Of a stretch of DNA of 64,000 bases, positions 3,266 through 39,879 are shown piece by piece. Each line of letters opens with the position of its first letter. Positions within the stretch are counted from its first letter, which is position 1. Under the pieces are notes generated by a model. It was not told where the DNA came from and ran no database searches. It saw nothing but the letters and a program-made list of their open reading frames with translations. This DNA comes from a bacterium (GTDB taxonomy: Bacteria; Chloroflexota; Dormibacteria; Aeolococcales; Bog-877), in contig JAJYWQ010000064.1 in the NCBI GenBank assembly GCA_021791415.1, positions 91,446 to 155,445 on the forward strand, given 5' to 3'. The position numbers and the translations under genes were made by a program.

Positions 3266-3266
3266 G

Positions 3267-19022: not shown

Positions 19023-20576
19023 GTGGAGAAGAGGCAGGAGGAGCTGCTCTGGCTGCTGGCCCCGGCCGCGGTGGTGGGCACGGCGGTGGTGGCCTCCGCG
19101 CTCCGCGGGGGGGCCCTGGGGGGGCCACCTACCGGGCCACGGCTGGCCGGCCTGGGAGCGGCCCTGGGGGTGGTCGTGACGATCGGGGCCCTCACCTGGG
19201 TGAGTCGGCCACGCACCTCCCTCCGCCCCGGATCGCTGGGGGGAGCGCGCACCGCCCGGCTTCTCGAGCTCCGTCGGCTCTGGCACGGTGGGAAGGCACG
19301 GGTCCGGTTGGGACGGGTCGGGCCGGTGATCGTCCGCCTGCCGGAGGATGAGCACCTGCTGGTGCTAGGCCCCACCGGGTCGGGCAAGTCCAGCTCGCTG
19401 GCGATTCCCGCGATCCTGGAGTGGCCCGGCCCGGTGGTGGTCACCGACCCGAAGGGGGAGCTGCTGGCCCGGACCCTGGCGGCGCGGGAGCGGCGGGGCC
19501 CAGCCGCAGTCTTCGCTCCCCTCATGGAGCCCGGGGACGGCTGGAACCCGGTGAGCTCCATCACCAGCTCGGACGACGCCCTGCGCAGCGCTGGCTTCCT
19601 GCTCGGCCGTCCGCCGGACCGCGAGCCCTTCTGGCACGACCTGGCGCTTCAGCTGCTGCACGGGCTGCTGGTGGAGGCCGCCAGCGCCGGCCTCACCCTG
19701 AGTGACATCCTCGCCCTCCTTCAGCAGGTCCCGGCCGAGGAGGTGGCCGAGGAGCTCAGTCACCCGCTGGCCCGGCAGCTGGTCCAGGGTGCCCTGAGCG
19801 GCGGGGACCGGACCGCCATGGGCGTCGTCGCCACCCTGGTGTCCAAATTGGGGGTGTTCGGCAGCGATCAGGTGGCGCACACCACGGCCCGGAGCACCTT
19901 CGATCCACGCTGGCTGGCGAGTGGCCGGTTGAACAGCCTCTACTGCGTGGTCAGCCCCACTGACGCCCCGCTGGTGCGGGGGCTGCTGAGCGCCCTGCTG
20001 TCCGCCTGCTGGCGGGCGGTGTACGCCAGTCCGCCGCCGCTCCCGGTGCTCTTCGTCCTGGACGAGTTCGCTCAGCTGACGGCCCTGCCCGAGCTGCCCT
20101 CGCTGGTGCAGCTGGGCCGCACCCAGGGGGTGCGGATGGTGCTTCTGGCCCAGGACCTCGCCTCGATCTCGGCCCTGTACGGGGCGGAGGCGGTGACCGC
20201 CCTCTGGGCCAACTGCCGGACCAAACTCCTTCTCCCCGGCATCTCGGAGGTGGATCTGCTGGAACGCGCCAGCCGGCTGGTGGGCTCCGCCACCCTGCAC
20301 TCCGCGGAAGGTGGCCACCCGTTGCAGGCCCATCCGTACCTGCCTCCGGACGGGATCAGGCGGCTGCGGCAAGGGCGCGCCCTGATCCTCCGTGCGAGCG
20401 ACCATCCGGCACTGGTACGCCAGCTTCCCTGGTACTCCGACCGCCGGATGCGGGCGGCTGCCGCCGCCGGCACCCCTGACGAGCGCTTGCCCAGAGCGGC
20501 GACGGGACGCCCCATCACCATCGCACAGGGGCCCCGGCCGATCGCCTGGGCGCAGCCACGAGGTGGGGCCCGTTGA
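19023..20576 (+). CDS. Type IV secretion coupling protein (VirD4/TraG family ATPase)
   Basis: N-terminal TM helices. Walker A 'LVLGPTGSGKSSSLAIP'. 'VVTDPKGEL' motif. Walker B 'VLFVLDEFAQL'. 'GRTQGVRMVLLAQDLASI' is the TraG/VirD4 C-terminal hallmark. GTG start. Confidence 0.8.
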   Translation: MEKRQEELLWLLAPAAVVGTAVVASALRGGALGGPPTGPRLAGLGAALGVVVTIGALTWVSRPRTSLRPGSLGGARTARLLELRRLWHGGKARVRLGRVGPVIVRLPEDEHLLVLGPTGSGKSSSLAIPAILEWPGPVVVTDPKGELLARTLAARERRGPAAVFAPLMEPGDGWNPVSSITSSDDALRSAGFLLGRPPDREPFWHDLALQLLHGLLVEAASAGLTLSDILALLQQVPAEEVAEELSHPLARQLVQGALSGGDRTAMGVVATLVSKLGVFGSDQVAHTTARSTFDPRWLASGRLNSLYCVVSPTDAPLVRGLLSALLSACWRAVYASPPPLPVLFVLDEFAQLTALPELPSLVQLGRTQGVRMVLLAQDLASISALYGAEAVTALWANCRTKLLLPGISEVDLLERASRLVGSATLHSAEGGHPLQAHPYLPPDGIRRLRQGRALILRASDHPALVRQLPWYSDRRMRAAAAAGTPDERLPRAATGRPITIAQGPRPIAWAQPRGGAR

Positions 20577-20860
20577 CCGAGCTGACAACCTTTGCGACCG
20601 GCCTGAACAACCTCATCCACACGGTGACCACCCTGGCCCTGGGGGCGGTGGCGGTCCTTTGCCTCAGCTTCGCGGCGATCCGCTACATGACCTCACTCGA
20701 CAACAGCCAGCGCCGGGCGGCCGCCATCCAGGGTCTGGTGACCGTCCTCCTGGGCGTTCTCCTGCTGGTGAACGAGGGGGCCATCCTGACCTTCGTCGAG
20801 GGGCTGACCGGCAGCAACACCGCCTGCGCGACCGCAACCTGTTCGGCGAGCGGCCCCTGA
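20573..20860 (+). CDS. Small two-TM membrane protein, TrbC/VirB2 pilin-like (set A)
   Basis: 95 aa with two hydrophobic helices. TTG start overlaps the virD4-like stop (TTGA). A paralogous gene sits at 39943. The assignment is by architecture and context only. Confidence 0.5.
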   Translation: MTELTTFATGLNNLIHTVTTLALGAVAVLCLSFAAIRYMTSLDNSQRRAAAIQGLVTVLLGVLLLVNEGAILTFVEGLTGSNTACATATCSASGP

Positions 20861-20880
20861 GGAGGCGTTCCGCGGCTGCG

Positions 20881-22989
20881 GTGGTCCTTGCCGGACACCT
20901 GCTCTCGGCGGGGACCGCCGCGGCGCCCACGGCACAGCCCACCCCGCCCCCCAGCGCGGCGGCCGCCTCAGCGGGGAGCGACAGCCAGCAGTGCGGCGGG
21001 ATCACCGACCCCTTCTGCTACGTCATCGATGCGTTCGTCTCAGGGCCGGTGGCCATCATGGGCAGCCTCGACGGAAGTCCCGACCCGGCCCACGTCGACC
21101 CCCTGACTGGGGCGGTGACCTCGGGCCCGTGGCACCTGATCACCACTCTCGTGGGCACCAACCCGGTGGTGGACAACTACGACGGGAGCCTCGGCGAGCC
21201 GGCTCATGAGTGCGGGTCATCCGGCTGCATCCCCTGGGTCCAGGAGATGAACGCCGTCCTCGAGCCGCTGTCCCTGGCACTCATCGTGATCGCCTTCGCG
21301 CTCCAGGTGTCGCTCTTCATGGCCGGACAGCAGCTCAACCTCAGGTCGGGCATCGTGCCCTGCCTGATCGCCGCCGCGGTCCTCGGGGCGGGACTTCCGC
21401 TGCACCTCGCTGGCCGCGTCATCGACATGGGGAGCTGGGTGTCCCAGGGGATCCTGGGGGCCACCTTCCACCGGCTGGGGGGCGCCGGCGCCGCCCCGCT
21501 GGACATGATGACCGTCCTCGCCATCACCGCCTACTGCCCGGAGGACAGTCCCATCATCCACCCGGGCATCCACCTCTCCCTGCCCGGCCCGAGCCCGCGC
21601 CAGCAGGTCCTGGTGGATCCCTGGATGGACCGGTCATTCAAGCAGTCTCACTGCATCGGGGCGTCCAGCCCAGACTTCACCAAGGAGGTCCTGGACCGCA
21701 GCGAGAACTTCTTCGGCCCCCCCCTCCACGACGCCAACTGCGACCGCGGAGACGCATCCCCCGGTCAGCCCCTCTGCACCAACACCGACAACCAAGTCAA
21801 CAACAACCAGGGCCAGAACTGCCTGGAGGGCAGCGGCGGGTCCACCGTTGGGGCGCTCCAATTGGGGGTGCTGCCGCTGCCGGGCGAGCCTCGGGCGGGT
21901 GACGGGCAGAGCCCGGCCGACTGTCGCTACGCGGACATCTATTGGGGCACGGTGCCCACCTTCACCGATGTCTGGGCGGGAGTTGGCCCCCATGGGCGCA
22001 ACGGCTACGACGTCCCCGACGGGCTCATGGGGATGGTGGCGTTCACCGCCCTCACCGGGCTCGGCCTGTGGCTGGCGCTGACCTACCTGGCCCGCTTCAT
22101 CGTCCTCTCCCTCCTCGCGGCCTGCTCCAGCCTGGCCTTCGTGGCGCTGGCGCTGCCCGGAGGGCGGACCCTCTTCAACCGCTACTGGGCCACGATCGGA
22201 GCCCTCTCCGCGGTAGTTGTGGTCCAGACCCTGATCTTCCTGGCCTTCGTGGCGGTGGTCTCCACCGTCTCCGGCCTGGCCCCCGTGGCCGCGCACGGAT
22301 CCTGCCCCTTCATCTCCCCGACCTCCCGTACGGGCTGCGCCGCGGCTCAGGGCGGACTCCTGGCCGAAGTGGGCAGTGGCAACCCCGGGGACCAGTTCGC
22401 CAAGTGCCTGCTGGCGGCCGTGACAGTCTTCCTCATGGTGGAGGTGCCGGGCCGCATCAGCCGGGGCGAGATGTCCACAACCCGCCGGGTCCGCGCCCTG
22501 GCCGAGCTGTCTGCAGGGACCGTGCTTGGCGGCTCCCTGCTGGCGGCCAGCGGCACCCTGCCCCAGGCCCGGCGCTACGGCTCCCGCTGGGGTGGGCAGG
22601 CCGCCCACGCCCTGGGGCTGCCCGGGCGACCGGAGGAGGACCTCGCCAGAAGGCTCGAAAGTGCGGTGCCCGGGGCGGGCGCCCGGTGGCCGACTGTGGT
22701 CGGACGGGAGTCGAGAGAGCAGTTTCTCGGTCGCCAGCTGCTGCGGGACGGAAGCCGTCAGCAGGAGCTCGGCAGGCTGACCAGCTTCAGCCCGGACGAT
22801 CTGGCGGCGATCAGGGCGCTGCCCGAGGGGACGGAGCTGGCGGAGGCACTCCGCGCCCTTGGGGCCCAGTACGCGGCCGCCGGAGGTCCCGCGGTCCACA
22901 GCCTGGACGTGGCCTACCTCAATGCCCTGCGGCGCGGCAGACTTCGGCCCCAGCCGGGCCCCCCGCGGGACCAAGCGAGGCGAGCATGA
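20881..22989 (+). CDS. Polytopic membrane protein, VirB6/TrbL-like (set A), with a Cys-rich extracytoplasmic domain
   Basis: Roughly 7 TM helices. Hydrophilic Cys-rich loops. Sits between the pilin-like and VirB3-like genes. The start is uncertain: a possible non-canonical start near 20857 would give a signal-peptide-like 'RRRSAAAVVLAGHLLSAGTAAAP'. The upstream part of track ORF 20392..22989 is an artefact. Confidence 0.5.
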   Translation: MVLAGHLLSAGTAAAPTAQPTPPPSAAAASAGSDSQQCGGITDPFCYVIDAFVSGPVAIMGSLDGSPDPAHVDPLTGAVTSGPWHLITTLVGTNPVVDNYDGSLGEPAHECGSSGCIPWVQEMNAVLEPLSLALIVIAFALQVSLFMAGQQLNLRSGIVPCLIAAAVLGAGLPLHLAGRVIDMGSWVSQGILGATFHRLGGAGAAPLDMMTVLAITAYCPEDSPIIHPGIHLSLPGPSPRQQVLVDPWMDRSFKQSHCIGASSPDFTKEVLDRSENFFGPPLHDANCDRGDASPGQPLCTNTDNQVNNNQGQNCLEGSGGSTVGALQLGVLPLPGEPRAGDGQSPADCRYADIYWGTVPTFTDVWAGVGPHGRNGYDVPDGLMGMVAFTALTGLGLWLALTYLARFIVLSLLAACSSLAFVALALPGGRTLFNRYWATIGALSAVVVVQTLIFLAFVAVVSTVSGLAPVAAHGSCPFISPTSRTGCAAAQGGLLAEVGSGNPGDQFAKCLLAAVTVFLMVEVPGRISRGEMSTTRRVRALAELSAGTVLGGSLLAASGTLPQARRYGSRWGGQAAHALGLPGRPEEDLARRLESAVPGAGARWPTVVGRESREQFLGRQLLRDGSRQQELGRLTSFSPDDLAAIRALPEGTELAEALRALGAQYAAAGGPAVHSLDVAYLNALRRGRLRPQPGPPRDQARRA

Positions 22990-23360
22990 CGGACGCCGAG
23001 GTACCCCAGCCGATCTCCGACGTGCCCAGCCGGTGGGGAGGGCTGACCACGCCCCAGCTGGGCTGGCTCGGCGGTGCGGCCGCACTGCCGATGATCCTGG
23101 TCCACGCGCATTGCGGTCTGGCAGCGACTGTCACCGGGGCGGTGCCGTGGGCGGCCGGCTGTGTCGTGCTGGGCTTCGGCAGCTGCCGGGGCCGCCGGCT
23201 CGATGCCTACCTTCTTGACGCGGCGCGCTTCCGGACCCAGCGACGGCGGCTGTGCCACCCGGACGTGTCGGCGTCGCCCCAGGAGTTCCGCGCCGTGGAC
23301 GGCTCGGAGCGCTGGCCCCTGGCCTGGAACGTGCCCTCAGGAGCCCCGGCCGAGCGATGA
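22986..23360 (+). CDS. Small membrane protein, VirB3/TcpE/PrgI-like (set A)
   Basis: 125 aa with a two-TM hairpin ('LGWLGGAAALPMIL...AGCVVLGF'). ATGA overlaps with both the upstream and downstream genes. Immediately precedes VirB4, the canonical VirB3 position. Paralogous to the ORF at 36657. Confidence 0.5.
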   Translation: MTDAEVPQPISDVPSRWGGLTTPQLGWLGGAAALPMILVHAHCGLAATVTGAVPWAAGCVVLGFGSCRGRRLDAYLLDAARFRTQRRRLCHPDVSASPQEFRAVDGSERWPLAWNVPSGAPAER

Positions 23361-25558
23361 GGTTTCCCCCGCGCTCGGGATCAACCCTGGACCTCATCGA
23401 CCTCGCCTACCTGGAGGGCGGCGTTGTTCGCCTCCGGGACGGGCGCCACCGGGTGGGGCTGGAGCTGGCAGCCCTCAACCTTCTGCTGCGGTCCAGCGCC
23501 GAGCGGCAGCTGATCTGGAGGCGCTACTGGCGGGCGCTCTCGACCCTCTCGGGGCCCGTCTCCCTCTACTGCTTCTCCCGGCCCCTGTCCCCCTCCACCC
23601 AGCCGGCGGCCACCGCCAATGGGCGCCTGGACGCCGAGTACTCGGCATCACTTCTGGCCAGTGGCCAGGTCCACCTCCGTCACCACCTGGCTGTGATCTG
23701 GGACGACTCCTCCGCGAGCCTGCGGGGGGCCCTGCCAGGGAGACTCCGCCGAGGAGGAGCCCTTGACCTGGACCAGCGCCGGAGAGCCGTTGCGGCGGCA
23801 TTGGCCGGCCCTGGGCTGCGTCCCCGTCCCCTCGAGGACGGGGATTGGCTGCGCCTGCTGCAGGAGCTGACAGGTGGGCGGAGTGGACGGCCCACCGCCA
23901 GCTTCGCCAGCTGGGTGGCGCCAGAGACAGCCACGGTGAGGCCGGACCGGCTGGAGCTCTCGGACCGGGTGGCCCGCAGCCTGGTCGTGCGCGGCTTCCC
24001 CCGCCGTCTGCAGCTCGGCTGGCTAGCCCCTCTGGTCCTGGCCGCCCCTGGCCCGCTCCGGATGGCTCAGCACCTGTACCCGGTGCCCAAGGTGCACAGC
24101 CTGAGCCATCTGCGCCGGCGTATCCGCACCTTCGAGACCGGGCTGGAGGTGGACCGGCGCCAGGGTCGGCGCCCGGATGCCGGCACCCGGGCAGCACTCG
24201 AGGACGCCCTGGCCCTCGAGGAGCGGGTCCTTTTGGAGGAGGACCACCTGATGCGGCTGGTGACCTGCGTCACGGTGGAGGGGTCCAGCACGGCGGAGAT
24301 GGAGCTGGGGTGGGAGCAGGTGGTCAACACCCTCATCGAGCTTGGATGCACCCCGGTTCCGCTGTTCAACCGCCAGGCGGACGGGTGGCGGGCAACGCTG
24401 CCGCTCGGTGTGGACCCCCTCGGCTGGTCCCGGGACATGACGGCGGCAGCCACCGCCACCGCCATCCCGTTCCTGCGGGCGACCCTGGATGTGAGGAACG
24501 GGGTGCTGCTGGGGCCCAGCCCCAGCACGAGGGAGCTGGTGACCGTCGATCCCCTGGCCAGCTCCAACCCCAACCGCAACGTCCTGGTCCTGGGGACCTC
24601 CGGCGGTGGCAAATCCTTCACCTCCAAGTTGCTCGCTGCCCGCCTCTTCCTCCAGGGGTGCCGGCTCCGCTGCCTGGACCCCGCGGGGGAATACCTGAAG
24701 CTGGGGGCACTTCTCGGAGCGCGCTGCCTGGACCTGGGCGCGACCGGCGAGCCCGGCCTCAATGTTCTCGGTCCACCTGGCCAGGAGCCCGAGGGGCGGG
24801 TGGAGCGGGCCATGCCTCTGCTGACGCGGCTGCTGGGGTCGAGCCGGTCGGCCGCCGCGCGGGCCTCCCTGGAGGCCATCGGGCTGGCCGCTCTGACCGC
24901 CCTGCGGCTCCAGCCCGCTGAAGCTGGCCTCGCTGAGGTCTTGGAGCAACTGGAGGCGTCGGGCCAGGGGGAGCTCGCAGCCGGTCTGCGGCGGCGGGCT
25001 GCCGGCCCTGGTGCCGGCGTCTTCCAGGGCGCAGGCGGAGTCGGCGGCGATGACGCCCTGGTCATCTCCCTGCGCCACCTCCACGCCCGGGAGGAGCTCC
25101 TGGGGGCAGCCATGGAGCTGGTGCTCTGGCACCTCGAGGCAGACCTCGAGCACCCGCACTCCCGACCCACCCTGGTGGTCGTGGACGAGGCGGAGGTCCT
25201 GCTCTCCTCCCCATCGGGAGCGCGCTTCCTGGAGAGCATGGCCCGGCGGATCCGCAAACTGGGAGCCGGGCTGCTGGTGGTTTCCCAGGTGGTCGAGGAC
25301 TTCCTCAACTCTCCCGTGGGCAACGTGGTGATTCGCAACTGCCATACCAAGCTGCTGCTCCGCCAGGAGCCGGTGGCCCTTGCCGGGGTGCGGCGCGCCT
25401 TCTCGCTCTCCGAGGCGGAGTGCGAGCTCCTCCGAGATGCGGAGCCAGGGTGCGGGCTGGTGCTGGCGGGGGATGAGCATGCCAGCTTCCGAGGGGGAGC
25501 TCCTCAGGCTTGGTGGCCGGCCCTGACCACAGGTCAGCTGGCCGCGGGCTCCCCGTGA
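23357..25558 (+). CDS. VirB4/TrbE/TraC-family T4SS ATPase (set A)
   Basis: Walker A 'VLVLGTSGGGKSFTSKLL' followed by 'CLDPAGEY' (the DPxGE motif of VirB4). Walker B 'LVVVDEAEVLL'. 'LLVVSQ' motif. Confidence 0.85.
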   Translation: MRFPPRSGSTLDLIDLAYLEGGVVRLRDGRHRVGLELAALNLLLRSSAERQLIWRRYWRALSTLSGPVSLYCFSRPLSPSTQPAATANGRLDAEYSASLLASGQVHLRHHLAVIWDDSSASLRGALPGRLRRGGALDLDQRRRAVAAALAGPGLRPRPLEDGDWLRLLQELTGGRSGRPTASFASWVAPETATVRPDRLELSDRVARSLVVRGFPRRLQLGWLAPLVLAAPGPLRMAQHLYPVPKVHSLSHLRRRIRTFETGLEVDRRQGRRPDAGTRAALEDALALEERVLLEEDHLMRLVTCVTVEGSSTAEMELGWEQVVNTLIELGCTPVPLFNRQADGWRATLPLGVDPLGWSRDMTAAATATAIPFLRATLDVRNGVLLGPSPSTRELVTVDPLASSNPNRNVLVLGTSGGGKSFTSKLLAARLFLQGCRLRCLDPAGEYLKLGALLGARCLDLGATGEPGLNVLGPPGQEPEGRVERAMPLLTRLLGSSRSAAARASLEAIGLAALTALRLQPAEAGLAEVLEQLEASGQGELAAGLRRRAAGPGAGVFQGAGGVGGDDALVISLRHLHAREELLGAAMELVLWHLEADLEHPHSRPTLVVVDEAEVLLSSPSGARFLESMARRIRKLGAGLLVVSQVVEDFLNSPVGNVVIRNCHTKLLLRQEPVALAGVRRAFSLSEAECELLRDAEPGCGLVLAGDEHASFRGGAPQAWWPALTTGQLAAGSP

Positions 25559-26235
25559 ACCCCCGGCGCCTGCTGTCCGGCATGGGGCCCCTGCTGGCCC
25601 TGGGTTGCCTGGTCCCCGCGGTCCTTGGGGCCAGCCTCGTGGGGTTGCTGGGGGCCGGGGCAGCGGCCGCCGGGTGGCCCGCGCTGGGTGGCTTGCTCCC
25701 CGATCCTGGAGGGCTGGTCCTGCGGCCTGGAGAGGTGGTCCTGGCGAGCTCGCCCTCCTTCCCGGAGTGGGCGGCCCCGTGCGGCCCCGAGCCGGGAGCA
25801 CTGGCGGTCCAGCCCTCGGCCTGCACCGGACATCCTGAGCCGTTCCCGGCCAACTACCAGGGCTTCTCCACGGGTCAGTGCACCTGGTATGTGGCCACCC
25901 GCCGGCTGGTCACCTGGCACACCCCTCAGGGCCTCCTGGGCGGCAACGGGGGACAGTGGCTGGAGCTGGCTTCGGCGGCGGGCTATGCGGTCGGCGTCTC
26001 CCCGGAGCTGGGGGCCATCGCGGTCTACGGAGACCGCGGCCCTGGCCACGTGGCGTTCGTCGTCGGGGTGGGCGCCGACGGGTCGTACACGGTGGCGGAG
26101 TCCAACTGGGCGCTCCTCGGGCCCGTCCCGCCCTACGTGGACCTCAGGGGGGTCGCGGCCGGAGCTACCGGGAGCGCGACCGAGACACTCCTGGGGTTCG
26201 TCTACGGCCCCGCGGAGCTGCCGTCCCCATCCTGA
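25555..26235 (+). CDS. Secreted CHAP-domain peptidoglycan hydrolase (VirB1-like role)
   Basis: Signal-peptide-like N-terminus. CHAP Cys 'GQCTWYVATRR' and His 'GHVAFVVGV'. GTGA overlap with the virB4 stop. Confidence 0.75.
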   Translation: MNPRRLLSGMGPLLALGCLVPAVLGASLVGLLGAGAAAAGWPALGGLLPDPGGLVLRPGEVVLASSPSFPEWAAPCGPEPGALAVQPSACTGHPEPFPANYQGFSTGQCTWYVATRRLVTWHTPQGLLGGNGGQWLELASAAGYAVGVSPELGAIAVYGDRGPGHVAFVVGVGADGSYTVAESNWALLGPVPPYVDLRGVAAGATGSATETLLGFVYGPAELPSPS

Positions 26236-26254
26236 CGCTCCGTATGCTGAGACG

Positions 26255-27508
26255 GTGGAGGCGGCTGCAGAACTGGGCACCGGGAGGCGGGCGCGGCGGC
26301 GCGCGCTGGGCCTTGTGGCCACGTCGCACGCCGGCCAGCACATGTACTCGGGTCTCCTACCCCTGACCTACCCGGCGATCCTGGTCGACTTCCACCTCAA
26401 CTACGCCACCTTGGGGCTGGCCGTCGGGGTGATCGGGGTGGTGGGCGGACTCACCCAGGCCAGCGCCGGGTACGTCGGCCAGCGGGTGGCGGCCCGTTGG
26501 ATCCTCGGCTGCCAGAACCTGGTCGTGGGGCTCTGCGCCATTCTCGGCGCGCTGGCCCCCACCTACCCCCTGTTTGCCACCGGTCAGGGGCTGGCGCTCC
26601 TGGGATCGAGCCAGCAGCACCCGGTGGGGAGTTCGGTGGCGGCCCGGGTGTACCCCGACCGCCGGGGAACCGCTCTCAGCGTCGCCACCATCGGGGGAAG
26701 CGTGGGCTCGCTGATAATCCCCATCCCGGCGGCCCTGCTCATCGCCAATCTGGGCTGGAGACCGACCCTCCTCATCCTGGCCATCCCCCTCTTCCTGCTC
26801 GGACTCCTCCTGCTCCTCACCTTTCCCGCGGTCCCCGGCGATCGAGGCAAGGGTGTCCCCCGGCCGAGCCTGCGTCCCCACCTGCCGAGGATCCGGCGCG
26901 ACCAGCTGGTCGACCCCCGGGTGGCGATCTTCGGGGTTGCCGCCGCGACGATCGCCGCTGGTGGTCGTGGGCTGGGGACTCTCAACGCCTTCATCCCCCT
27001 CTACCTGCGCAACGGAGTCCACCTCCCCGAGGCCACGGTGGGGGTGGTCTTCAACGTGGTCCTGGTGGGGGCGGTGCTGGGACCGATCCTGGGCGGGCCG
27101 CTCTCGGACCGGCTCGGACGCATCCCCGTGCTGTGGGGCGCGTACGCGCTGTCGGCGGTCGCCGTCCTGGCCTTTGGGCTCGCTTCGTCGCTGCCACTTG
27201 CCGGCCTGGCGGCACTGGCCCTGATCGTGGGGCTGGTGGCGTATGTTGAGAACCCGCTGCTCCAGGCCCTGGTGAGCGACAGCATCGCCACCTCCGCCCA
27301 GGCTGGGATGTTCGGCTTCTACTTCGCGCTCTCGTACGGAGTCGGGTCGCTCTGGATCGTGGCCATCGGCCAGGTCATCCAGCACCTCGGCTTCTCCGCC
27401 GGCTTCGGCGTGATGGCCGGCTCGTACGTGGGAGCGGGCCTGCTCCTGATCCCCTGTGTTGGAAGGACTCGGAGCCGCCCGTCCGCCGGCGGCCAGGCCG
27501 CCAGGTGA
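26255..27508 (+). CDS. MFS transporter
   Basis: 12-TM architecture with typical MFS loops. Start set at an in-frame GTG. The upstream part of track ORF 25625..27508 is an artefact. Confidence 0.75.
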   Translation: MEAAAELGTGRRARRRALGLVATSHAGQHMYSGLLPLTYPAILVDFHLNYATLGLAVGVIGVVGGLTQASAGYVGQRVAARWILGCQNLVVGLCAILGALAPTYPLFATGQGLALLGSSQQHPVGSSVAARVYPDRRGTALSVATIGGSVGSLIIPIPAALLIANLGWRPTLLILAIPLFLLGLLLLLTFPAVPGDRGKGVPRPSLRPHLPRIRRDQLVDPRVAIFGVAAATIAAGGRGLGTLNAFIPLYLRNGVHLPEATVGVVFNVVLVGAVLGPILGGPLSDRLGRIPVLWGAYALSAVAVLAFGLASSLPLAGLAALALIVGLVAYVENPLLQALVSDSIATSAQAGMFGFYFALSYGVGSLWIVAIGQVIQHLGFSAGFGVMAGSYVGAGLLLIPCVGRTRSRPSAGGQAAR

Positions 27509-27899
27509 GACCAGGCAGGCCGGGCCCAGCCAGACCCATCGTGAGTCGCGAGCCACCGGGACCTGCAGGTCGGGGAGGGACAGCCTCCGCCCCTTCGCAG
27601 ACGCGAGCCCGTCGCCCGGCCGGGCCGGCGAGAGTCCTGGCCGCAATTCGATTTGGGGCTCCGTGGCCGGGGCTCTGAGCGACCTCAAGGAGCTGGAGGC
27701 TGCCGCCAGCGAGGCGAGATCCGTTCTGCGCCGCCTGGAGCGCCTGCACGGCCGTCTGCAGGGAACGCAGAGCGCCGACCTCCTCCGCCAGGCCGAGGCT
27801 CTCATGGATGGCGGACGGCAGCTGCTGACCCAGTTGGAGACGGAGAGGGCCGAGGCGCGGGCGCGACTGCGCGGGCTGCTGCGAGAGGGGGCGGACTAG
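27456..27899 (+). CDS. Hypothetical small coiled-coil protein (start uncertain)
   Basis: The C-terminal ~80 aa ('LSDLKELEAAASEARSVLRRLERLHGRLQ...') look protein-like. The N-terminal half is low-complexity. Confidence 0.25.
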   Translation: MLEGLGAARPPAARPPGETRQAGPSQTHRESRATGTCRSGRDSLRPFADASPSPGRAGESPGRNSIWGSVAGALSDLKELEAAASEARSVLRRLERLHGRLQGTQSADLLRQAEALMDGGRQLLTQLETERAEARARLRGLLREGAD

Positions 27900-28464
27900 G
27901 TCCTCGAGGTCGGCCCGACCGCCCCGCCGGGCCGGCTCAACCGATCCCACTCGGCGAGCCCGGAGAGGTCAGGGCGGTGCTCGCGGACCATGGTGACCAG
28001 GGTGTCGGCCGTTTGCCGGTCCAGGCGCAGCTTGATGCCGTCGGGGGGATTGCGCCGTAGGACCTCCAGGTTGCGCCGGCCGCCCCAACCGGATCGGTCG
28101 ATGCGGTAATCGCTGCTGTTGAGCTGGAAGACCACGATCCGCTGGCCGGGGATGGTCACCTCCACGCCCTCCAGTCCCGACCAGGTGGCGGTCACACTGC
28201 AGCCCTTGGTGATCCTCCGGACTCCCAGTTCTCCCACGTAGACCGCGTTCTGGCCCTGGCCGACGTAGGAGAGGACGGCCGACAGCAGCGCCCACATCTC
28301 CAGCACCAAAAGCCAGCCCCAGCTCCCGGTCAGCAGGGCGAGTACCACCCCGACCGGGATCATCAGCAGCGCCAGGACCCGGGCGGCACTCCAGGCGGCC
28401 CGCCATCGCTCCTGCGGCGAGGGGCGCAGCCGGACTTCGGCGCCGGGCACCGGCCTCTCCGTCA
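27896..28464 (-). CDS. Membrane protein with bacterial PH (YdbS/DUF304-like) domain
   Basis: A two-TM hairpin followed by a PH-like beta region. Start chosen at GTG (VTERPVPG). The upstream part of the ORF is an Arg/Gly-rich artefact. Confidence 0.5.
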
Positions 28465-29328
28465 CCGGTGGGCCCCGGCGCCGGAGGCGCCGACCAGCCA
28501 GCCGCCCGCGATCGCTCCCGCCGCCAGGACCGGGAGCACGAACGGGTACTGCCCGGGACGACGCTCGGCCTCCAAGAGGACGCGGTCGACGGCCAGCAGC
28601 CCAAGCCCCGCGCCCGCACCCCGCAGGGCCCATGCCCGAGCCGCACCGGGCGAGCTCAAAACGCTCAGCGCCGCCGCTCCCGTTAGGGTCGCGTGAGCTC
28701 CGAGGCGGCTCCCCCGCACCCCCAGCAGCACAGGCAGGCTCCTGCGCCCGGCCGCCCGGTCCCGGGCGGCGTCCGGCCCCCCGTTGGCGAGGTGCAGCGC
28801 CAGCCCCATCAGGCCGGCCATCGCCATCAGGAGCCGGGGACGTACAGGCGGCAGACCCAGCGCCGCCGGTCCCAGCAGCGGCACCGTCCCGATGCCGACC
28901 GCGAAGGGGGCCCAGGAGAGCGGCGTGCGGCGAAGCCAGAGGTCGTATGACCAGCCGCTGGTCAGCCCCAGCGCCATGACCCGAAACGCCCGGCGTCCCG
29001 CCAGCGCGGCCACCAGAAGCGAGCCGGCGCCGGTGCCGAGGGCGAAGGCCAGGACGGCCCGCCGGGTCACCTCGCCACGGGGGATCGGCTTGTAGGGCTG
29101 GTGGATCAGATCGGCCCGATGATCGGCGACGTCGTTCAGAGATCCGGTGCTGACCTGGGCCAGGGCCATCGCCAGCGCCGCCAGGAATGCCGGAGTGCGG
29201 GGTCCATCACCTCCCTCGGCACGGGTCGCGGCCCACCCGGAGAGGGCTGTGAACGCGGTGCAGGCCAGAGATGGGCCCAGGTGGGCTGCGGCGACCCAGC
29301 CCCTCAGAGACCGGCTCCGATTTGGCAT
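28462..29328 (-). CDS. UbiA-family prenyltransferase
   Basis: 'NDVADHRAD' (NDxxDxxxD) motif and multi-TM architecture. Confidence 0.75.
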   Translation of the reverse strand: MPNRSRSLRGWVAAAHLGPSLACTAFTALSGWAATRAEGGDGPRTPAFLAALAMALAQVSTGSLNDVADHRADLIHQPYKPIPRGEVTRRAVLAFALGTGAGSLLVAALAGRRAFRVMALGLTSGWSYDLWLRRTPLSWAPFAVGIGTVPLLGPAALGLPPVRPRLLMAMAGLMGLALHLANGGPDAARDRAAGRRSLPVLLGVRGSRLGAHATLTGAAALSVLSSPGAARAWALRGAGAGLGLLAVDRVLLEAERRPGQYPFVLPVLAAGAIAGGWLVGASGAGAHR

Positions 29329-29360
29329 GCTCCCATGATGGTGGACCAAATGGGCGAGCT

Positions 29361-30416
29361 GTGAGGGGCGGGCGGGCGCGGCTCCTGGCCGCGGTGCGAC
29401 GAGAGCAGGTCGACGCCACCCCGGTGTGGTTCATGCGCCAGGCAGGCCGGTCCCTGCCTCAATACCGGGAGCTGCGGCGGCGCTGGGGGCTGATGGAGAT
29501 GGTGCACCAGCCGGAGCTCTGCGCCGAGGTCACCTGCATGCCCGTGGAGCTCCTGGGCGTCGACGCCGCCGTCCTGTTCGCCGACATCATGCTCCCCCTG
29601 GAGGGGATGGGCGTGCCCTTCGAGCTTCGGGAAGAGGTGGGCCCCTGGGTGAATGACCCTGTTCGCAGCGCCGCGCAGGTGAGGGCGCTGCGGAGCCCCG
29701 CGGTCGGGGAGGCCTACCCCTTCCTCCTGGAGGGCATCCGCATCGCCCGGGAGCGGCTTGGAGAGCGGGCGGGCCTGATCGGCTTCGGGCCGTCTCCGTT
29801 CACCCTCGCCTGCTACCTGGTCGAGGGCCATGGCAGCCGCGACTACCCGGCGCTCCGTGGGCTCCTGCGCGGGGAGCCCGAGCTGTTGGCGCAGCTTCTG
29901 GGCACCCTCACCGACCACCTGGGCGACTACCTGTTGGCCCAAGCGGAGGCCGGCTGCGAAGTCGTCCAGGTCTTCGACAGCTGGGTCGGGGTCCTGGACG
30001 AGAGGGCGTTCCGGGAACACCTCCTGCCCCACCTGCGGCGCCTCTTCGACCGGCTTCGGGGGAGGGTGCCCGCCATCTACTTCTCCACCGCCTCGACCCA
30101 TCTCCTGCCCGCCTTCTCCGACCTGGGCGCTGCCGGGATCTCCGTGGACTGGCGCGTGCCGCTGGACACCGCCTGGGACACCGTGGGCGCGGACCACTTC
30201 CTGCAGGGCAATCTGGACCCGGCAGCGTTGCTGGCTCCGTGGGAGCGCCTGCGGCCGCTGGCCGCAGACGTCCTGGCCCGGGCGCGGGGGCGGCGGGGCC
30301 ACGTTTTCAACCTCGGCCACGGCGTCCTGCCCGAGACCGAGCCGGCCCAGCTGCGGCGGCTGGTGGAGTACGTCCACGAGTTCGGTGGGCGGGAGGGCCG
30401 CCCGCTGCCAACTTGA
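29361..30416 (+). CDS. hemE: Uroporphyrinogen decarboxylase
   Basis: 'PVWFMRQAGRSLPQY' signature. GTG start. Confidence 0.85.
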   Translation: MRGGRARLLAAVRREQVDATPVWFMRQAGRSLPQYRELRRRWGLMEMVHQPELCAEVTCMPVELLGVDAAVLFADIMLPLEGMGVPFELREEVGPWVNDPVRSAAQVRALRSPAVGEAYPFLLEGIRIARERLGERAGLIGFGPSPFTLACYLVEGHGSRDYPALRGLLRGEPELLAQLLGTLTDHLGDYLLAQAEAGCEVVQVFDSWVGVLDERAFREHLLPHLRRLFDRLRGRVPAIYFSTASTHLLPAFSDLGAAGISVDWRVPLDTAWDTVGADHFLQGNLDPAALLAPWERLRPLAADVLARARGRRGHVFNLGHGVLPETEPAQLRRLVEYVHEFGGREGRPLPT

Positions 30417-30421
30417 CCGTG

Positions 30422-30449
30422 GCGGGGGGGATCGGTTAACTTCCCCCCC
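30422..30449 (+). terminator. GC hairpin (G7-ATCGGTTAACTT-C8) immediately after the hemE stop
   Basis: Inverted homopolymer arms read directly in the sequence. No U-tract follows, so this is an I-shaped terminator candidate. Confidence 0.35.
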
Positions 30450-30478
30450 CGTAACGCACGCGCTATGTGGGAGGACGT

Positions 30479-31435
30479 ATGCGCGGAGCCCAAGCCATTG
30501 GGCGCGTCTCGATTGCTGTGGCAATGGCCGGGTTGGTCTGGGTCTCCGCCGTGCTGGGACCAGGTCCGAACACCAGGGCCCAGCAGGGACTCGCCGGTGA
30601 CCAGGCCCAACTGACCCAGCTTCTGAACCAGCTCCGAGCCCAGGGCGACCTGGCGTCTCAGAGCCAGGTGATGGCGCTCCTGACCCAGATTGAGTCGGAG
30701 CAGGGCTACTTGAAGCAGCTGAACGCCAAGCTGGCTGCGGATCAGGCGACCTCGGCGACCCTGCAGCGGCAGATGGCGGGTGATCAGATCGCCCTCACCA
30801 ACCTGGTGTCCACCGCCTACGTGGACGGCAGCGGCAGCCAGCAGGTGGCGGAGGCGCTGGCCGCACCCAACCTCGGCCAGTTCCTCGCCAGCACCGCCCT
30901 GCCGTCGGCGGTGGCATCCCAGGTCGCCCAGTTGGTGGAGACCATCAAGCACGACCAGCAGGTGGTGGCCACGGCCGCAGCGCAACTGCAGGTCGACGAG
31001 AGCCAGGCGATGGTAGCCCAGGCGCAGCTGGGGCAGCGCTCCCAGCAGCTCCTGGCCGAGCTGACAACGCCCCAGCCGGCCATCGGCACCGGAAGCTGGT
31101 CCTTCGCCTTCGGTGACTGCACCTGGTGGGTCGCCAGCCAGAGGAAGGTCACCTGGGGCGGCAACGCCTACCAGTGGTGGGCCAACGCCGCGGCTGCCGG
31201 ATACGCCGAGGGCCAGACTCCCGAGGTGGGGTCGATCGTGGTGTGGGGCATGGACGTGCCCGGAGAGAGCTGGGGGTACGGCCACGTGGCGTACGTGGTG
31301 GCGGTCAAGCCGGGGTCCTTCGAGGTCTCGGAGATGAACTTCTACGGCGTCCCGGGGGGCGGGTGGGATCGAGTCGACTACAGATGGATTCAGGATGGCG
31401 CAGGGTACCTGGGTTTCATATACGGCCCCGCTTGA
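30479..31435 (+). CDS. Secreted coiled-coil + CHAP-domain cell-wall hydrolase (PcsB/RipA-like architecture)
   Basis: Signal peptide. Long Q/A-rich coiled coil. C-terminal CHAP domain ('GDCTWWVASQRK', 'GHVAYVVAV'). GGGAGGA RBS upstream of ATG 30479. Confidence 0.75.
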   Translation: MRGAQAIGRVSIAVAMAGLVWVSAVLGPGPNTRAQQGLAGDQAQLTQLLNQLRAQGDLASQSQVMALLTQIESEQGYLKQLNAKLAADQATSATLQRQMAGDQIALTNLVSTAYVDGSGSQQVAEALAAPNLGQFLASTALPSAVASQVAQLVETIKHDQQVVATAAAQLQVDESQAMVAQAQLGQRSQQLLAELTTPQPAIGTGSWSFAFGDCTWWVASQRKVTWGGNAYQWWANAAAAGYAEGQTPEVGSIVVWGMDVPGESWGYGHVAYVVAVKPGSFEVSEMNFYGVPGGGWDRVDYRWIQDGAGYLGFIYGPA

Positions 31436-32021
31436 GCTGACGCGGGCGCCCTCGGCGCCCGCTCAGCGAAGGGCATGGCCCAGGCTGGCCTCGAGGCTAA
31501 GGTGGGGAGCCGCCGCGCTCTGCCTGGCCGCGCTGTCCCCGGCACTGGGGGCGCTCAGCACCGGGGAGGCGGTCGGCCCCCCGTCTCCCGCCCCGGCGCT
31601 GGTGGCCCAGATCGCCGCCCAGGGCCGCAACCTCCTCAGCAGCACCGGCTACGAGATCACCATGCCGCTGGCGGTGACCAAGGTGACCCCGCCTCCGCCG
31701 CCCCAGCCATCCCTCCCCTACGGCAATGCCTTCTGGCAGCCGGTGCCAGAGCCGCCGATCGGAACCATCAAGCAGATCATCTGGGCCGCCGCCCAGAAGT
31801 ACAACGTCTCCTACGCCTGGCTCCTCGGGGTGGCCCAGTGCGAGTCCGGCCTCGACCCCACCGACGTCAACCGCTCCTCCGGGGCCAGCGGGCTCTTCCA
31901 GTTCATGCCCGCCACCTTCTACGGCCACGGAGGCACCGACATCTGGAACCCCACCCAACAGGCCGACATCGCCGCCAAGATGTTCTCCATAGGGGAGTCG
32001 TCGGAGTGGGTCTGCAAGTAG
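31395..32021 (+). CDS. Lytic transglycosylase (SLT-domain) protein
   Basis: 'AQCESGLDP' and 'SGASGLFQFMPATF' SLT motifs. The only in-frame ATG (31395) overlaps the upstream gene by 41 nt, so the start is uncertain. Confidence 0.65.
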   Translation: MAQGTWVSYTAPLELTRAPSAPAQRRAWPRLASRLRWGAAALCLAALSPALGALSTGEAVGPPSPAPALVAQIAAQGRNLLSSTGYEITMPLAVTKVTPPPPPQPSLPYGNAFWQPVPEPPIGTIKQIIWAAAQKYNVSYAWLLGVAQCESGLDPTDVNRSSGASGLFQFMPATFYGHGGTDIWNPTQQADIAAKMFSIGESSEWVCK

Positions 32022-35698: not shown

Positions 35699-36136
35699 AT
35701 GACCAACCCCCCTGACGCCGACCCGGAGCTGGAACCCGCCGCGGGCGGGCTGGACGCCGAGGAGCCGCTCGAGGATGACGTCCTTGAGGAGGAGGTGCTG
35801 GAAGAGGAGGTCCCGGTCGCTCGCCCCGCGCCCCGCCCCGCTCCTCCGCGGCCGTGGGGTGGAAGCCGCAGCAACGTCTCGGCTGAGGACCTGCCCCCCG
35901 AGGAGCTGACACCGGAGATGCGGTGGCCCCCGGGCAGCTGGGTGCGCGTCACCGACGTGGTCCGGCACAGCACCGGAGAGCCGATCGCCGGGATCCAGGT
36001 CGGCGACGTGGGCCAGGTGGTGGCGGCACTCTCCCAGACCCTGGTGGTTCTCTTCCCCACCCGCGACAACCGCCGGGAGGTGCTGCACATCGAGTCCATC
36101 GAGGCGGTGGACTCCCCGGCCGGGACGGCCCCCTGA
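35699..36136 (+). CDS. Hypothetical acidic protein
   Basis: Asp/Glu-rich N-terminus. The globular C-terminal ~70 aa ('WVRVTDVVRHSTGEPIAGIQVGDVGQVV...') resembles a small beta-barrel domain. Confidence 0.4.
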   Translation: MTNPPDADPELEPAAGGLDAEEPLEDDVLEEEVLEEEVPVARPAPRPAPPRPWGGSRSNVSAEDLPPEELTPEMRWPPGSWVRVTDVVRHSTGEPIAGIQVGDVGQVVAALSQTLVVLFPTRDNRREVLHIESIEAVDSPAGTAP

Positions 36137-36656: not shown

Positions 36657-36914
36657 ATGGCCCTCGGGCTGCCGCCGGCCCGCCTGGCCCTCCTGGGGCT
36701 CGTGGTGGCGGGAGGGGCGGCGGCGCTGCGGGCTCCGCTCCCGCTGGAGCCGAGAGCTGTCCTGGCCGGGCTGGTGCTCGGCCCGGGCTCGCTCCTCGCC
36801 TGGGCCAGGCTGCTGGAGCTCTCCGCCCTGGGCTGGTGCGAGCGGCTGGCCGCCTACTGGCTGCGCTCCCTCGCCGGGCTGGCGGAACGGTCGTCTTGGA
36901 TGGATGCCGCATAG
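36657..36914 (+). CDS. Small two-TM membrane protein, VirB3/TcpE-like (set B)
   Basis: GAGGAG RBS. 'GLPPARLALLGLVVAGGAAAL' parallels 'GLTTPQLGWLGGAAAL' of the set-A protein. It overlaps the downstream ATPase ORF by up to 79 nt, so it may be shorter or spurious. Confidence 0.4.
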   Translation: MALGLPPARLALLGLVVAGGAAALRAPLPLEPRAVLAGLVLGPGSLLAWARLLELSALGWCERLAAYWLRSLAGLAERSSWMDAA

Positions 36915-38800: not shown

Positions 38801-38809
38801 AATCGCCCC

Positions 38810-39406
38810 ATGGGTCGGGTGGTGCGCTACCGACTGCTCAACTCCGGCCGTGCCCCCGCAGCCGCCTGGGAGGAGGCTGTTCGCCAGTTCGCGGCCACCC
38901 GCAGCTGGCGGGAGGGGGAGATGTGGCTGGCGACCGACGCCTCCCGCGGCCTCTTCGAGTCCGAATACCTCCGCCACCTGCGGCTGGAGACCCCCGACCC
39001 CATCCTGGGGGCGGGCTTCGTCAAGGTGGAGGGCGACGAGACCGACGCTCTGGCTGTCTGCTTCGGGCTCCTGCGGATGACCGAGGAGCAGGGGGGGCGC
39101 GTTCTCATCGACGACCTGGACAACCCCATCCGCAAGCAGCGGCGGCTGGAGTTCATCGAGGGAAGGGTCAGTGGACCCCACACCATCGACGAGCTGATGG
39201 TCGCCGGGCCGATCTTCAAGCGGCTGCCCCGGGCGACCATCACCTTCTACCCCCCGCGCTATAGGGGCCGGACCCTTCCCGGCCCGAACACTCCCGCGGG
39301 GCAGTGGGGCTTCGCCCTCCAGGGGATGCGCGCCGCGGCGGGCGGCTTCCTGGAGGCGGAGGCGGAGGCGATGCGGATCTACCGCGGCCTGCAGGCGATC
39401 GGCTGA
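38810..39406 (+). CDS. Hypothetical protein encoded between the second VirB4-like gene and dtd
   Basis: 198-aa ORF with balanced composition and no TM. No family recognised. Confidence 0.5.
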   Translation: MGRVVRYRLLNSGRAPAAAWEEAVRQFAATRSWREGEMWLATDASRGLFESEYLRHLRLETPDPILGAGFVKVEGDETDALAVCFGLLRMTEEQGGRVLIDDLDNPIRKQRRLEFIEGRVSGPHTIDELMVAGPIFKRLPRATITFYPPRYRGRTLPGPNTPAGQWGFALQGMRAAAGGFLEAEAEAMRIYRGLQAIG

Positions 39407-39408
39407 CC

Positions 39409-39879
39409 TTGAGGGCCGTGGTCCAGCGGGTTCAGCAAGCTGCGGTCCGGGTCCAGGGGGAGGAGGTGGGGGCCACCGGGCCCGGGCTGCTGGTGTACCT
39501 GGGTGTGGGGCCAAGGGACGATGACGGCGTTGCCCGCCATCTGGCCGGCCGCATCGCCACCCTCCGGGTGTTCCCCGACGACCAGGGCAGGATGAACCGC
39601 TCCCTGCTGGAGGTGGGCGGCCAGGCGCTGGTGGTGAGCCAGTTCACCCTGTATGCCGCCACCGGGCGCGGCCACCGGCCATCCTTCCTGGGGGCGGCAG
39701 CCCCGGCCACGGCGGCCGAACTCTGCCGCCGGTTCGGGGAGGAGCTGAGCCGGTTGGGGGTGGCGAGGGTGGCCGAGGGCCGTTTCGGCGCCCACATGGA
39801 GGTTGAGTCGGTGAACGATGGGCCGGTGACCGTGGTCCTCAGTTCGGGCGAGGCGCCCTGGGAGGCGGACTGCGGCTGA
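39409..39879 (+). CDS. dtd: D-aminoacyl-tRNA deacylase
   Basis: 'RAVVQRV', 'LLVYLGV' and 'VVSQFTLYA' (SQFTL) motifs. TTG start 2 nt after the upstream stop. Confidence 0.8.
   Translation: MRAVVQRVQQAAVRVQGEEVGATGPGLLVYLGVGPRDDDGVARHLAGRIATLRVFPDDQGRMNRSLLEVGGQALVVSQFTLYAATGRGHRPSFLGAAAPATAAELCRRFGEELSRLGVARVAEGRFGAHMEVESVNDGPVTVVLSSGEAPWEADCG

Follow-up and report, generated by a model that had tools for sequence, protein, structure and literature searches.

Introduction

Gating by the FtsEX complex has been described for the peptidoglycan hydrolases PcsB, CwlO and RipC (PMC10694151, PMC6705773, PMC5061712); CwlO of Bacillus subtilis is a secreted coiled-coil hydrolase that acts in elongation under FtsEX control (PMC6705773). 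In type IV secretion systems (T4SSs), CHAP is one of the two catalytic modules, SLT and CHAP, of TraG (pIP501) and PrgK (pCF10), and chromosomal T4SSs occur in the Patescibacteria, a sister lineage of the bacteria studied here (PMC12102498). In this study, we analyzed five predicted peptidoglycan hydrolase genes, designated CHAP_A, ccCHAP1, SLT, ccCHAP2 and ccGH73, which share with two T4SS-like gene sets a 64,000-nucleotide (nt) stretch of a Candidatus Dormibacterota genome (GenBank assembly GCA_021791415.1, contig JAJYWQ010000064.1, positions 91,446–155,445; hereafter the window). Dormibacterota are uncultured bacteria that abound in soil, and the literature searched contained no account of the biology of their cell envelope. 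We consider it fairly probable that the five enzymes belong to two classes, with CHAP_A as the VirB1-equivalent of a T4SS-like apparatus, and ccCHAP1/SLT, ccCHAP2 and ccGH73 as housekeeping autolysins for growth or cell separation.

Results

Five exported peptidoglycan hydrolases in one segment

Genes in the window, the G+C content of which is 69–75% throughout, were called by third-position G+C and checked against the gene calls for the identical public contig. The open reading frames (ORFs) were searched for families using the curated Pfam cut-offs (CHAP, PF05257, 26 bits; SLT, PF01464, 21.3 bits; Glucosaminidase, PF01832, 30.2 bits). A preliminary description of this DNA had named five hydrolase domains, and in the profile check all five were found where it had placed them, with scores above these cut-offs. 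CHAP_A (25555–26235, + strand) encodes a predicted membrane-anchored CHAP amidase/peptidase of 226 amino acids (aa; 59.5 bits). ccCHAP1 (30479–31435, +; 318 aa) comprises a signal peptide, a helical coiled coil of ~170 aa and a C-terminal CHAP domain (62.7 bits), and its ATG at 30479 is preceded by a GGAGGA ribosome-binding site. SLT (31395–32021, +; 208 aa; 40.4 bits) is a small, putatively secreted lytic transglycosylase with Rpf-like features. ccCHAP2 (50317–51465, +; 382 aa) contains a signal peptide, a coiled coil of ~230 aa and a CHAP domain (64.4 bits), and ccGH73 (55917–57110, −; 397 aa) contains a signal peptide, a helical hairpin, a Pro/Thr linker and a GH73 N-acetylglucosaminidase domain (47.6 bits).

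The catalytic residues, the loss of which had been set beforehand as the ground for rejecting these assignments, are all in place and do not vary among 7 to 36 orthologs, though family identity to the window proteins falls to ~32–57%. They are C109/H165/E182 in CHAP_A (23 orthologs), C214/H269/E285 in ccCHAP1 (17 sequences, in which the L106..V110-S111..Y114..G117 motif is equally invariant), C281/H339/E356 in ccCHAP2 (seven orthologs) and E289 and Y375 in ccGH73 (30 sequences); in SLT, C149-E150-S151, G166-L-F-Q-F170 and C207 are invariant in 36 orthologs. An N-terminal basic-then-hydrophobic segment is found in all five proteins, long and anchor-like in CHAP_A and signal-peptide-like in the other four; here and below, signal, anchor and transmembrane (TM) segments were read by eye from a hydropathy scan rather than with a dedicated predictor. 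Judged from these sequence features, all five are true hydrolase genes of a Candidatus Dormibacterota chromosome, and their exported products are probably active on peptidoglycan. It has to be considered that some of the coiled-coil proteins might be catalytically silent regulators, because a coiled-coil 'hydrolase' may have degenerated into an activator, as in the case of EnvC (PMC7668044), and that the clustering might be mere collinearity without functional meaning, given that the collinearity of the whole segment (see below) is very strong and includes unrelated metabolic genes. The invariance of every checked catalytic residue across orthologs of 45–60% overall identity, together with CHAP and GH73 scores well above the Pfam cut-offs, makes this explanation very improbable.

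The B. subtilis genome is 4.2 Mb. More than 35 hydrolases are known in that species (PMC6473061), and at this density, which is borrowed from B. subtilis and not taken from a Dormibacterota genome, ~0.26 hydrolases would be expected per 31 kb, compared with the five found in 31.5 kb (Poisson P ~1e-5 per window). On this borrowed estimate, the cluster would be far above the typical genome-wide density. Most of the five hydrolases are known kinds of enzyme, found here in an uncultured phylum.

A ccCHAP1 protein identical to that of the window is encoded in the Dormibacterota metagenome-assembled genome (MAG) GCA_027339725.1 (contig DAHWNY010000044.1), and orthologs in other Dormibacterota MAGs share 53–97% identity. 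The names given by the sources for homologs of ccCHAP1, ccGH73 and VirB4-A are Candidatus Dormibacterota, Dormibacteria or Dormibacteraeota almost throughout, apart from a few evidently mislabelled titles. The titles Candidatus Micrarchaeaceae archaeon, Nanopelagicaceae, Acidiferrales, Acidoferrum and Binatus, carried by third-party annotation (TPA) MAGs at loci L032, L039, L047, L067 and L075, are probably such mislabels, since the Dormibacterota-specific synteny or CHAP family is present there.

CHAP_A is coupled to virB4 of a T4SS-like gene set

Synteny was examined in one genome per GTDB species, with ccCHAP1 as the anchor and 10-kb flanks, which gave 35 loci with a full-length ortholog of 52–96% identity. 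Labels such as L011 or L073 denote fetched homolog-bearing loci, and counts of gene order cover only those loci whose flank reaches the genes concerned. CHAP_A is the last gene of T4SS-like set A and encodes a protein with a single N-terminal hydrophobic segment (residues 6–41). The virB4-A stop and the CHAP_A start overlap by 4 nt in the window, and CHAP_A follows virB4-A directly in 21/21 loci (gap −4 to +59 nt, with the 4-nt overlap in 13 of them), which bears out the earlier suggestion that a CHAP hydrolase is coupled to VirB4-A. Among the five hydrolases only CHAP_A adjoins T4SS genes. Since the position directly after virB4-A is the classical VirB1-type place, CHAP_A is best read, by analogy, as the VirB1-equivalent of set A. 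It would be translated together with VirB4-A and would cut peptide stems locally, so that an envelope-spanning apparatus can cross the wall; the enzyme is presumably active, and the apparatus would presumably need it.

Like TraG, PrgK and the CD419/TrsG class, CHAP_A is a membrane-anchored CHAP enzyme encoded inside a T4SS-like operon right after virB4. Unlike them, it has no SLT module: the two-module VirB1 layout (SLT/lysozyme plus CHAP) was not found in CHAP_A, where Pfam detected CHAP only, and the SLT module lies ~5 kb off in a gene of its own, which is coupled to ccCHAP1. A further difference is that its T4SS-like host is chromosomal and vertically conserved, with no relaxase match among the ORFs scanned. 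A word-based search returned no VirB4-A homologs of >35% identity outside the Dormibacterota-type cluster.

Set A (19023–25558, +) consists of virD4, VirB2-like, VirB6-like, PrgI/VirB3-like and virB4-A genes, with CHAP_A after them. VirD4 (19023–20576, +) matches Pfam T4SS-DNA_transf (137.6 bits) and the CD1115-type NCBIfam model (117.7 bits; cut-off 250), and the 95-aa VirB2-like protein with two TM segments (20573–20860, +) scores 24.8 bits against T4SS_pilin (cut-off 26.6). The VirB6-like polytopic protein of 702 aa (20881–22989, +) and the PrgI/VirB3-like protein (22986–23360, +) were assigned from their transmembrane patterns; PrgI was only a faint match, in L007. VirB4-A (23357–25558, +) is above the cut-offs for AAA_10/P-loop_TraG and scores 156.7 bits against the CD1110-type VirB4 of NCBIfam (cut-off 325). 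Set B (36657–41091, +) consists of an 85-aa two-TM protein, VirB4-B (36896–38800, +; AAA_10/P-loop_TraG above cut-offs), a 198-aa soluble protein, a 79-aa two-TM VirB2-like protein (39943–40182, +; transmembrane pattern) and TrbL/VirB6 (40195–41091, +; Pfam TrbL_4, 37.3 bits, cut-off 27), and has the housekeeping gene dtd (39466–39879, +; Pfam Tyr_Deacylase) inside it. The two sets are paralogous, each holding VirB2-, VirB3-, VirB4- and VirB6-like genes, and the core of a monoderm, MPF-FATA-like T4SS (VirB4 ATPase, coupling protein, VirB6-like protein) is entirely present in the window. As their scores are under the equivalog cut-offs, sets A and B are classified by sequence as T4SS-like but outside the named CD1110/CD1115 subfamilies. 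No relaxase family match was obtained among the window ORFs scanned, a few short ORFs having been left unscanned, or among the precomputed Pfam matches of the called genes. The small two-TM proteins are the most conserved T4SS-like parts, with identities of 76–98% for the pilin-like protein and 72–99% for the 79-aa protein, compared with 46–89% for VirB4-A. PADLOC gave no match for the small proteins of unknown function. The presence of a chromosomal, monoderm-type system with VirB2-like pilins is a likeness to the T4SS of Patescibacteria (PMC12102498).

The proximity of the hydrolases to two T4SS-like sets also raises the question of whether the T4SS-like apparatus delivers them as effectors against other bacteria or a host, as bacteria-killing T4SSs do; in a Patescibacterium, peptidase and lysozyme genes 3′ of virB4 are essential for epibiotic growth (PMC12102498). 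Such a role is very unlikely here. All five hydrolases begin with a classical signal or anchor segment, which implies export by Sec, no conserved immunity-like small genes adjoin them, and the partner genes encode a GH15 enzyme, a DHH protein and HemE. Moreover, Dormibacterota are regarded as free-living soil bacteria (PMC10608941).

ccCHAP1 and a small transglycosylase form a conserved gene pair

The end of ccCHAP1 and the start of SLT overlap by 41 nt in the window, and SLT, read as translationally coupled to ccCHAP1, follows it in 35/35 loci (gap −41 to +3 nt). The conserved upstream neighbor of the pair is hemE (29361–30416, +; uroporphyrinogen decarboxylase; Pfam URO-D, 370 bits), separated from ccCHAP1 by 62–173 nt in 28 of 29 loci. 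In the 62-nt spacer of the window, an inverted repeat of a G-run and a C-run (GGGGGGG ... CCCCCCCC; 30421–30451) could form a hairpin; as it has no T-tail, it was not picked up as a terminator. A scan of the 25–33-kb region for promoter and terminator consensus sequences found nothing, such a consensus being uninformative for the Dormibacterota phylum.

E150 of SLT aligns with the catalytic Glu of MltC and RpfC in weak matches to Protein Data Bank (PDB) sequences. The score for the Rpf domain (Transglycosylas, PF06737) is 26.3 bits, just under the cut-off of 27, and that for the NCBIfam RpfC model is 18 bits against a cut-off of 200; the AQCESG and GLFQF motifs and the invariant Cys pair thus amount to a resemblance of sequence to Rpf. 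RipA and RpfB form an endopeptidase/transglycosylase partnership. The pairing of ccCHAP1 with a small Rpf-like transglycosylase is similar, but here it takes the form of an operon with overlapping genes, and the transglycosylase is an SLT protein by Pfam that just misses the Rpf model. By analogy with RipA–RpfB in mycobacteria, ccCHAP1 and its transglycosylase would cut peptide and glycan together. The M20 peptidase and MR_MLE genes 3′ of SLT were considered as a muropeptide-recycling pair with an L-Ala-D/L-Glu epimerase; this was rejected, because NCBIfam places the MLE protein in MenC/OSBS (N-succinyl-amino-acid racemase [NSAR]-type; 320 bits).

Proteins consisting of an anchor, two LysM domains and CHAP are encoded in other Dormibacterota lineages and in Chloroflexi-labelled MAGs, in unrelated contexts (L049–L092; for example L088 9323–10306 and L062 9260–10345). 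Their CHAP domains are ~50% identical to that of ccCHAP1 and have the same GFIY end, and tblastn with window genes as queries detected none of them in these loci.

ccCHAP2 and ccGH73 have partners of their own

Residues 37–247 of ccCHAP2 gave SMC/EzrA-type coiled-coil matches. The gene is followed by one for a DHH/DHHA1 protein (51466–52311, +; weak Pfam DHHA1/DHH matches), the start of which abuts the ccCHAP2 stop in the window, and this pair is kept in L011, L012 and L073. The CHAP domains of CHAP_A, ccCHAP1 and ccCHAP2 share 43–44% pairwise identity, and all end in G-F-I/V-Y. A further coiled-coil CHAP type (P0083), 28–35% identical to ccCHAP1 and ccCHAP2, adjoins alr, glmS and cdaA elsewhere.

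In the AlphaFold2 model of ccGH73 (mean predicted local distance difference test [pLDDT] score 73), the GH73 domain (>90) is preceded by two helices (residues 40–94 and 109–173) that form the hairpin (65–72) and by a disordered Pro/Thr linker. Foldseek against the PDB returned GH73 enzymes first, with LytB at the top (E 1.7e-7). The C-terminal domain has the same fold as LytB, AtlE, Acp and SagB (E 1.7e-7 to 1e-3), including the catalytic Glu and the Y-A-S/T-D motif, whereas these structures lack an N-terminal hairpin of the RipC/PcsB type. Apart from the catalytic domain, these enzymes carry choline-binding or SH3 modules or have a membrane partner such as SpdC. No paper linking FtsEX, a coiled coil and GH73 was found in the literature searched, nor was any description of a hairpin–GH73 fusion, so this fusion appears to be an uncharacterized variant.

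Downstream of ccGH73 lies a GH15 gene (54065–55864, −; TREH_N, trehalase/glucoamylase-like; Pfam Glyco_hydro_15, 98.5 bits; NCBIfam TreH1-like, 196 bits, below cut-off). The ccGH73–GH15 pair is present in L011 and L012 and in distant homologs of 35–49% identity from other lineages (L093, L094), where a Mur ligase gene lies upstream and no T4SS genes occur in the 8 kb fetched on each side. The larger block of ccGH73, GH15, DUF3151, DHH and ccCHAP2 is kept in L011 and L012 without mreB or rodA.

In the window, mreB (58726–59760, +) lies near ccGH73 and adjoins a RodA–PBP2 fusion gene, a single ORF of 1020 aa (59771–62833, −) with FTSW_RODA_SPOVE, PBP_dimer and transpeptidase domains. Between ccGH73 and mreB is a gene for a 504-aa protein (57193–58707, −) with a degenerate Ser/Thr-kinase-like N-terminus, one TM segment, a Pro-rich linker and a Cys-containing C-terminal domain. 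Its residues 96–163 gave weak PADLOC matches to the PD-T4-6 kinase, and it may be a pseudokinase-type envelope regulator. In L011 and L012, mreB, rodA-pbp2 and the kinase-like gene are all missing and a response regulator gene abuts ccGH73. The mreB/rodA-pbp2 block at this position is therefore a lineage-specific insertion or loss, and the idea that this linkage marks ccGH73 as an elongasome hydrolase was abandoned.

The hydrolases lie in a vertically inherited, collinear segment

The kept order is virD4 ... virB4-A, CHAP_A ... UbiA, hemE, ccCHAP1, SLT, M20, MenC-like ... FolB, virB4-B ... dtd ... TrbL. This ~45-kb arrangement is collinear in ~35 species-level genomes (L014–L047 among them) wherever the flank reaches, down to a ccCHAP1 identity of 53%, and it is present also on a 2.39-Mb contig. 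Housekeeping genes lie between and inside the T4SS-like sets, namely those for an MFS transporter, UbiA, HemE, an M20 peptidase, a MenC/OSBS-type enzyme, FolB and Dtd. Because the order is kept in ~35 species with housekeeping genes interleaved, the hydrolase/T4SS layout is a vertically inherited collinear segment, and not a local expansion or a mobile island. The proposal of an expansion of hydrolases around the T4SS-like sets is thus not upheld, the more so as the coiled-coil hydrolases have their own, non-T4SS partners. Origin from an integrative and conjugative element was ruled out by the order across ~35 species, the interleaved housekeeping genes, the even G+C content, and the fact that the sole tRNA gene is an internal tRNA-Glu.

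The order has exceptions. L020 and L047 (1–7970) keep UbiA–hemE–ccCHAP1–SLT, but the 8 kb upstream of it contain no genes of set A. In L024 (16226–20972), no set B follows FolB, and ABC transporter genes are found there instead. In L073 (MAG Bin_84), virB4-B is missing between FolB and the gene for the 198-aa protein, and ccCHAP2 is present in two tandem copies (9332–12642). Together with the separate partners and the further CHAP types elsewhere, these exceptions point to a clade-wide autolysin family. The closeness of the coiled-coil hydrolases to T4SS-like genes is best read as chromosome layout, in an envelope-rich segment, rather than as a shared operon or function.

The strongest competing explanation is that ccCHAP1 and its transglycosylase together form a split, coiled-coil-regulated SLT + CHAP enzyme of the VirB1 type that serves set B or both sets, which would make three or more of the five hydrolases accessories of secretion. 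SLT and CHAP are the domain pair of TraG and PrgK (PMC12102498), and set B, with its VirB2-, VirB3-, VirB4- and VirB6-like genes, has no adjacent hydrolase. Wherever the flank reaches that far, the pair is located between the sets and shares their strand, save in L020/L047 (set A) and L024 (set B). It is true that at least seven genes, including those for M20, the MenC/NSAR-like enzyme and FolB, separate the pair from virB4-B, and that a gap of 29–509 nt follows SLT; as dtd and folB are interleaved even within set B, distance alone is a weak argument. However, the constant neighbor of ccCHAP1/SLT is hemE and no T4SS gene, and L020 and L047 retain the pair without set A upstream. In addition, a hairpin of the PcsB/RipC type is known from autolysins of division and elongation and not from VirB1-type enzymes, and those paralogs that share it (ccCHAP2, ccGH73 and the alr-linked type) occur in non-T4SS contexts. 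On balance, a split VirB1-type enzyme is unlikely, and we retain the assignment of ccCHAP1/SLT to the housekeeping autolysins. In light of the non-T4SS partners and other contexts, three or four of the five are better described by a remark in the preliminary description that some of these enzymes could be morphogenetic hydrolases.

Other genes of the window were noted as well. A class A penicillin-binding protein (PBP) is encoded just upstream of set A (16246–18384, +), a SpoIIM-family membrane protein at 42363–43859 (+) and a GT28-like glycosyltransferase at 52318–53484 (−); cell-wall functions abound throughout the region. A gene for an acidic 145-aa protein (35699–36136, +), located upstream of set B in the interval from the MenC-like gene to FolB, has no family match; the protein is unusually conserved, with 69–96% identity over its C-terminal 90 residues. 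At the edge of the window, an acetate-utilisation-like cluster (2–5502) comprises genes for an acetyl-CoA synthetase (truncated at the edge), a LytS-type histidine kinase with a LytTR regulator, a DUF485 protein and a sodium:solute symporter.

The coiled-coil hairpins resemble those of PcsB, RipC and CwlO

The architecture of a signal peptide, a coiled-coil hairpin and a C-terminal catalytic domain is found in ccCHAP1, ccCHAP2 and ccGH73; hydrophobic N-termini, AlphaFold2 helices and coiled-coil matches agree with the PcsB-like layout attributed to them earlier. The AlphaFold2 model of ccCHAP1, which has helices at residues 30–115 and 143–195, is of low confidence and was used for the secondary-structure pattern only. 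In all three proteins, the loop between the two long helices carries the motif L-x3-V/I-x3-Y-x2-G, followed by a short helix, and the motif is invariant in each family except for the Gly in ccGH73 (L85 and Y93 invariant, G95 in ≥90% of 30 sequences). When the hairpins of ccGH73 and ccCHAP1 were compared using hhalign, the Y-x2-G loops were aligned (probability 68%, E 4.7e-5).

As for known families, phmmer aligned ccCHAP1 46–315 with PcsB (4cgk) 131–390 (E 9.5e-12), into the coiled coil, most of the score coming from CHAP. Among the NCBIfam models, PcsB scores best against each of the three CHAP proteins and covers residues 84–291 of ccCHAP1, but their scores of 65.4, 64.9 and 52.8 bits lie far under the cut-off of the PcsB equivalog NF046104 (450), indicating that CHAP_A, ccCHAP1 and ccCHAP2 are not PcsB orthologs. 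The Pfam coiled-coil family CC_PcsB (PF24568) was passed by seven of eight distant ccGH73 homologs (7/30 of the family), which align over their full length with the window protein. In the Foldseek search with ccGH73, the first coiled-coil matches were RipC in the Mycobacterium tuberculosis FtsEX/RipC structures 8idc, 8jia and 8idd, followed by PcsB.

PcsB of Streptococcus pneumoniae, which is FtsEX-gated, is a single essential gene. ccCHAP1 shares with it the signal peptide, the long coiled-coil N-terminal domain, the C-terminal CHAP domain and the catalytic Cys and His, but belongs to another phylum, scores far below the equivalog, is one of several paralogs per genome in Dormibacterota and has no FtsEX identified in the window or the fetched loci. 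The RipC/FtsEX system of Mycobacterium and Corynebacterium has in common with the Dormibacterota enzymes the hairpin ahead of a C-terminal catalytic domain; this domain is CHAP or GH73 here, and not NlpC/P60 as in RipC and RipA, and the RipC fold matches had E values of 0.13–0.27. A secreted coiled coil with a C-terminal hydrolase is likewise shared with CwlO–FtsEX(–SweCD), and some metagenome homologs of the ccCHAP proteins are labelled CwlO by the Joint Genome Institute. CwlO, however, has NlpC/P60, no sweCD or ftsEX was seen here, and the mreB linkage of ccGH73 is lineage-specific.

From these comparisons, the coiled-coil enzymes likely work like PcsB, RipC and CwlO. Following Sec export, the antiparallel hairpin would keep the C-terminal catalytic domain inactive or tethered. 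Hydrolase activity would be released at sites of growth or septation once the L-x3-V/I-x3-Y-x2-G loop is engaged by a partner in the membrane, for which an FtsEX-type ABC complex encoded at another place in the genome is the most likely candidate. The architecture and its conservation were observed directly, whereas the gating and the partner are proposed by analogy. The earlier remark that no ftsEX is visible agrees with our Pfam scan, which found no FtsE/FtsX-type ABC gene among the ORFs scanned in the 64-kb window, and a literature search combining Dormibacter and FtsX returned nothing.

Several observations weigh against the two-class reading or its gating mechanism. A tblastn search of the window and 92 loci (~1.5 Mb) with Escherichia coli FtsE as the probe found only PotA-like and ABC-2-type ATPases, and the ABC genes that adjoin ccCHAP homologs in L048, L060 and L066 do not resemble FtsEX. 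Dependence on FtsEX is not universal among coiled-coil hydrolases, as exemplified by RipA in Corynebacteriales (PMC9897464). The CC_PcsB threshold was reached by no window protein, by none of 17 ccCHAP1 orthologs and by none of 22 Dormibacterota-type ccGH73 proteins, and the ccGH73 hairpin profile had no significant match among PDB sequences. The fold matches to RipC and PcsB are weak (E 0.13–0.6), and the ccCHAP1 model has a mean pLDDT of only 51. To these points must be added the lack of a hydrolase of its own in set B and the exact correspondence of SLT + CHAP to monoderm VirB1-type enzymes, as described above.

Discussion

The locus offers a concrete, conserved parts list for wall cutting in Dormibacterota: one secretion-linked CHAP enzyme and a small family of hairpin autolysins, including a glucosaminidase version. 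A more far-reaching scheme can be drawn, in which sets A and B are an ancestral, vertically inherited, relaxase-less envelope machine, perhaps related to the T4SS of Patescibacteria, that passes the wall by means of CHAP_A and a split, gated ccCHAP1/SLT enzyme, and in which ccGH73 is the first glycan-cleaving autolysin gated directly by a hairpin of the RipC/PcsB type. We regard this scheme as speculative and rather doubtful. If none of these readings holds, the locus is a well-conserved set of ordinary autolysins. If the hairpins are indeed FtsEX-gated, FtsEX control, known for peptidases and amidase activators, would include a glycosidase as well. In addition, a conserved, relaxase-less Dormibacterota system with two VirB4 proteins has implications for how the chromosomal T4SS of the neighboring Patescibacteria arose.

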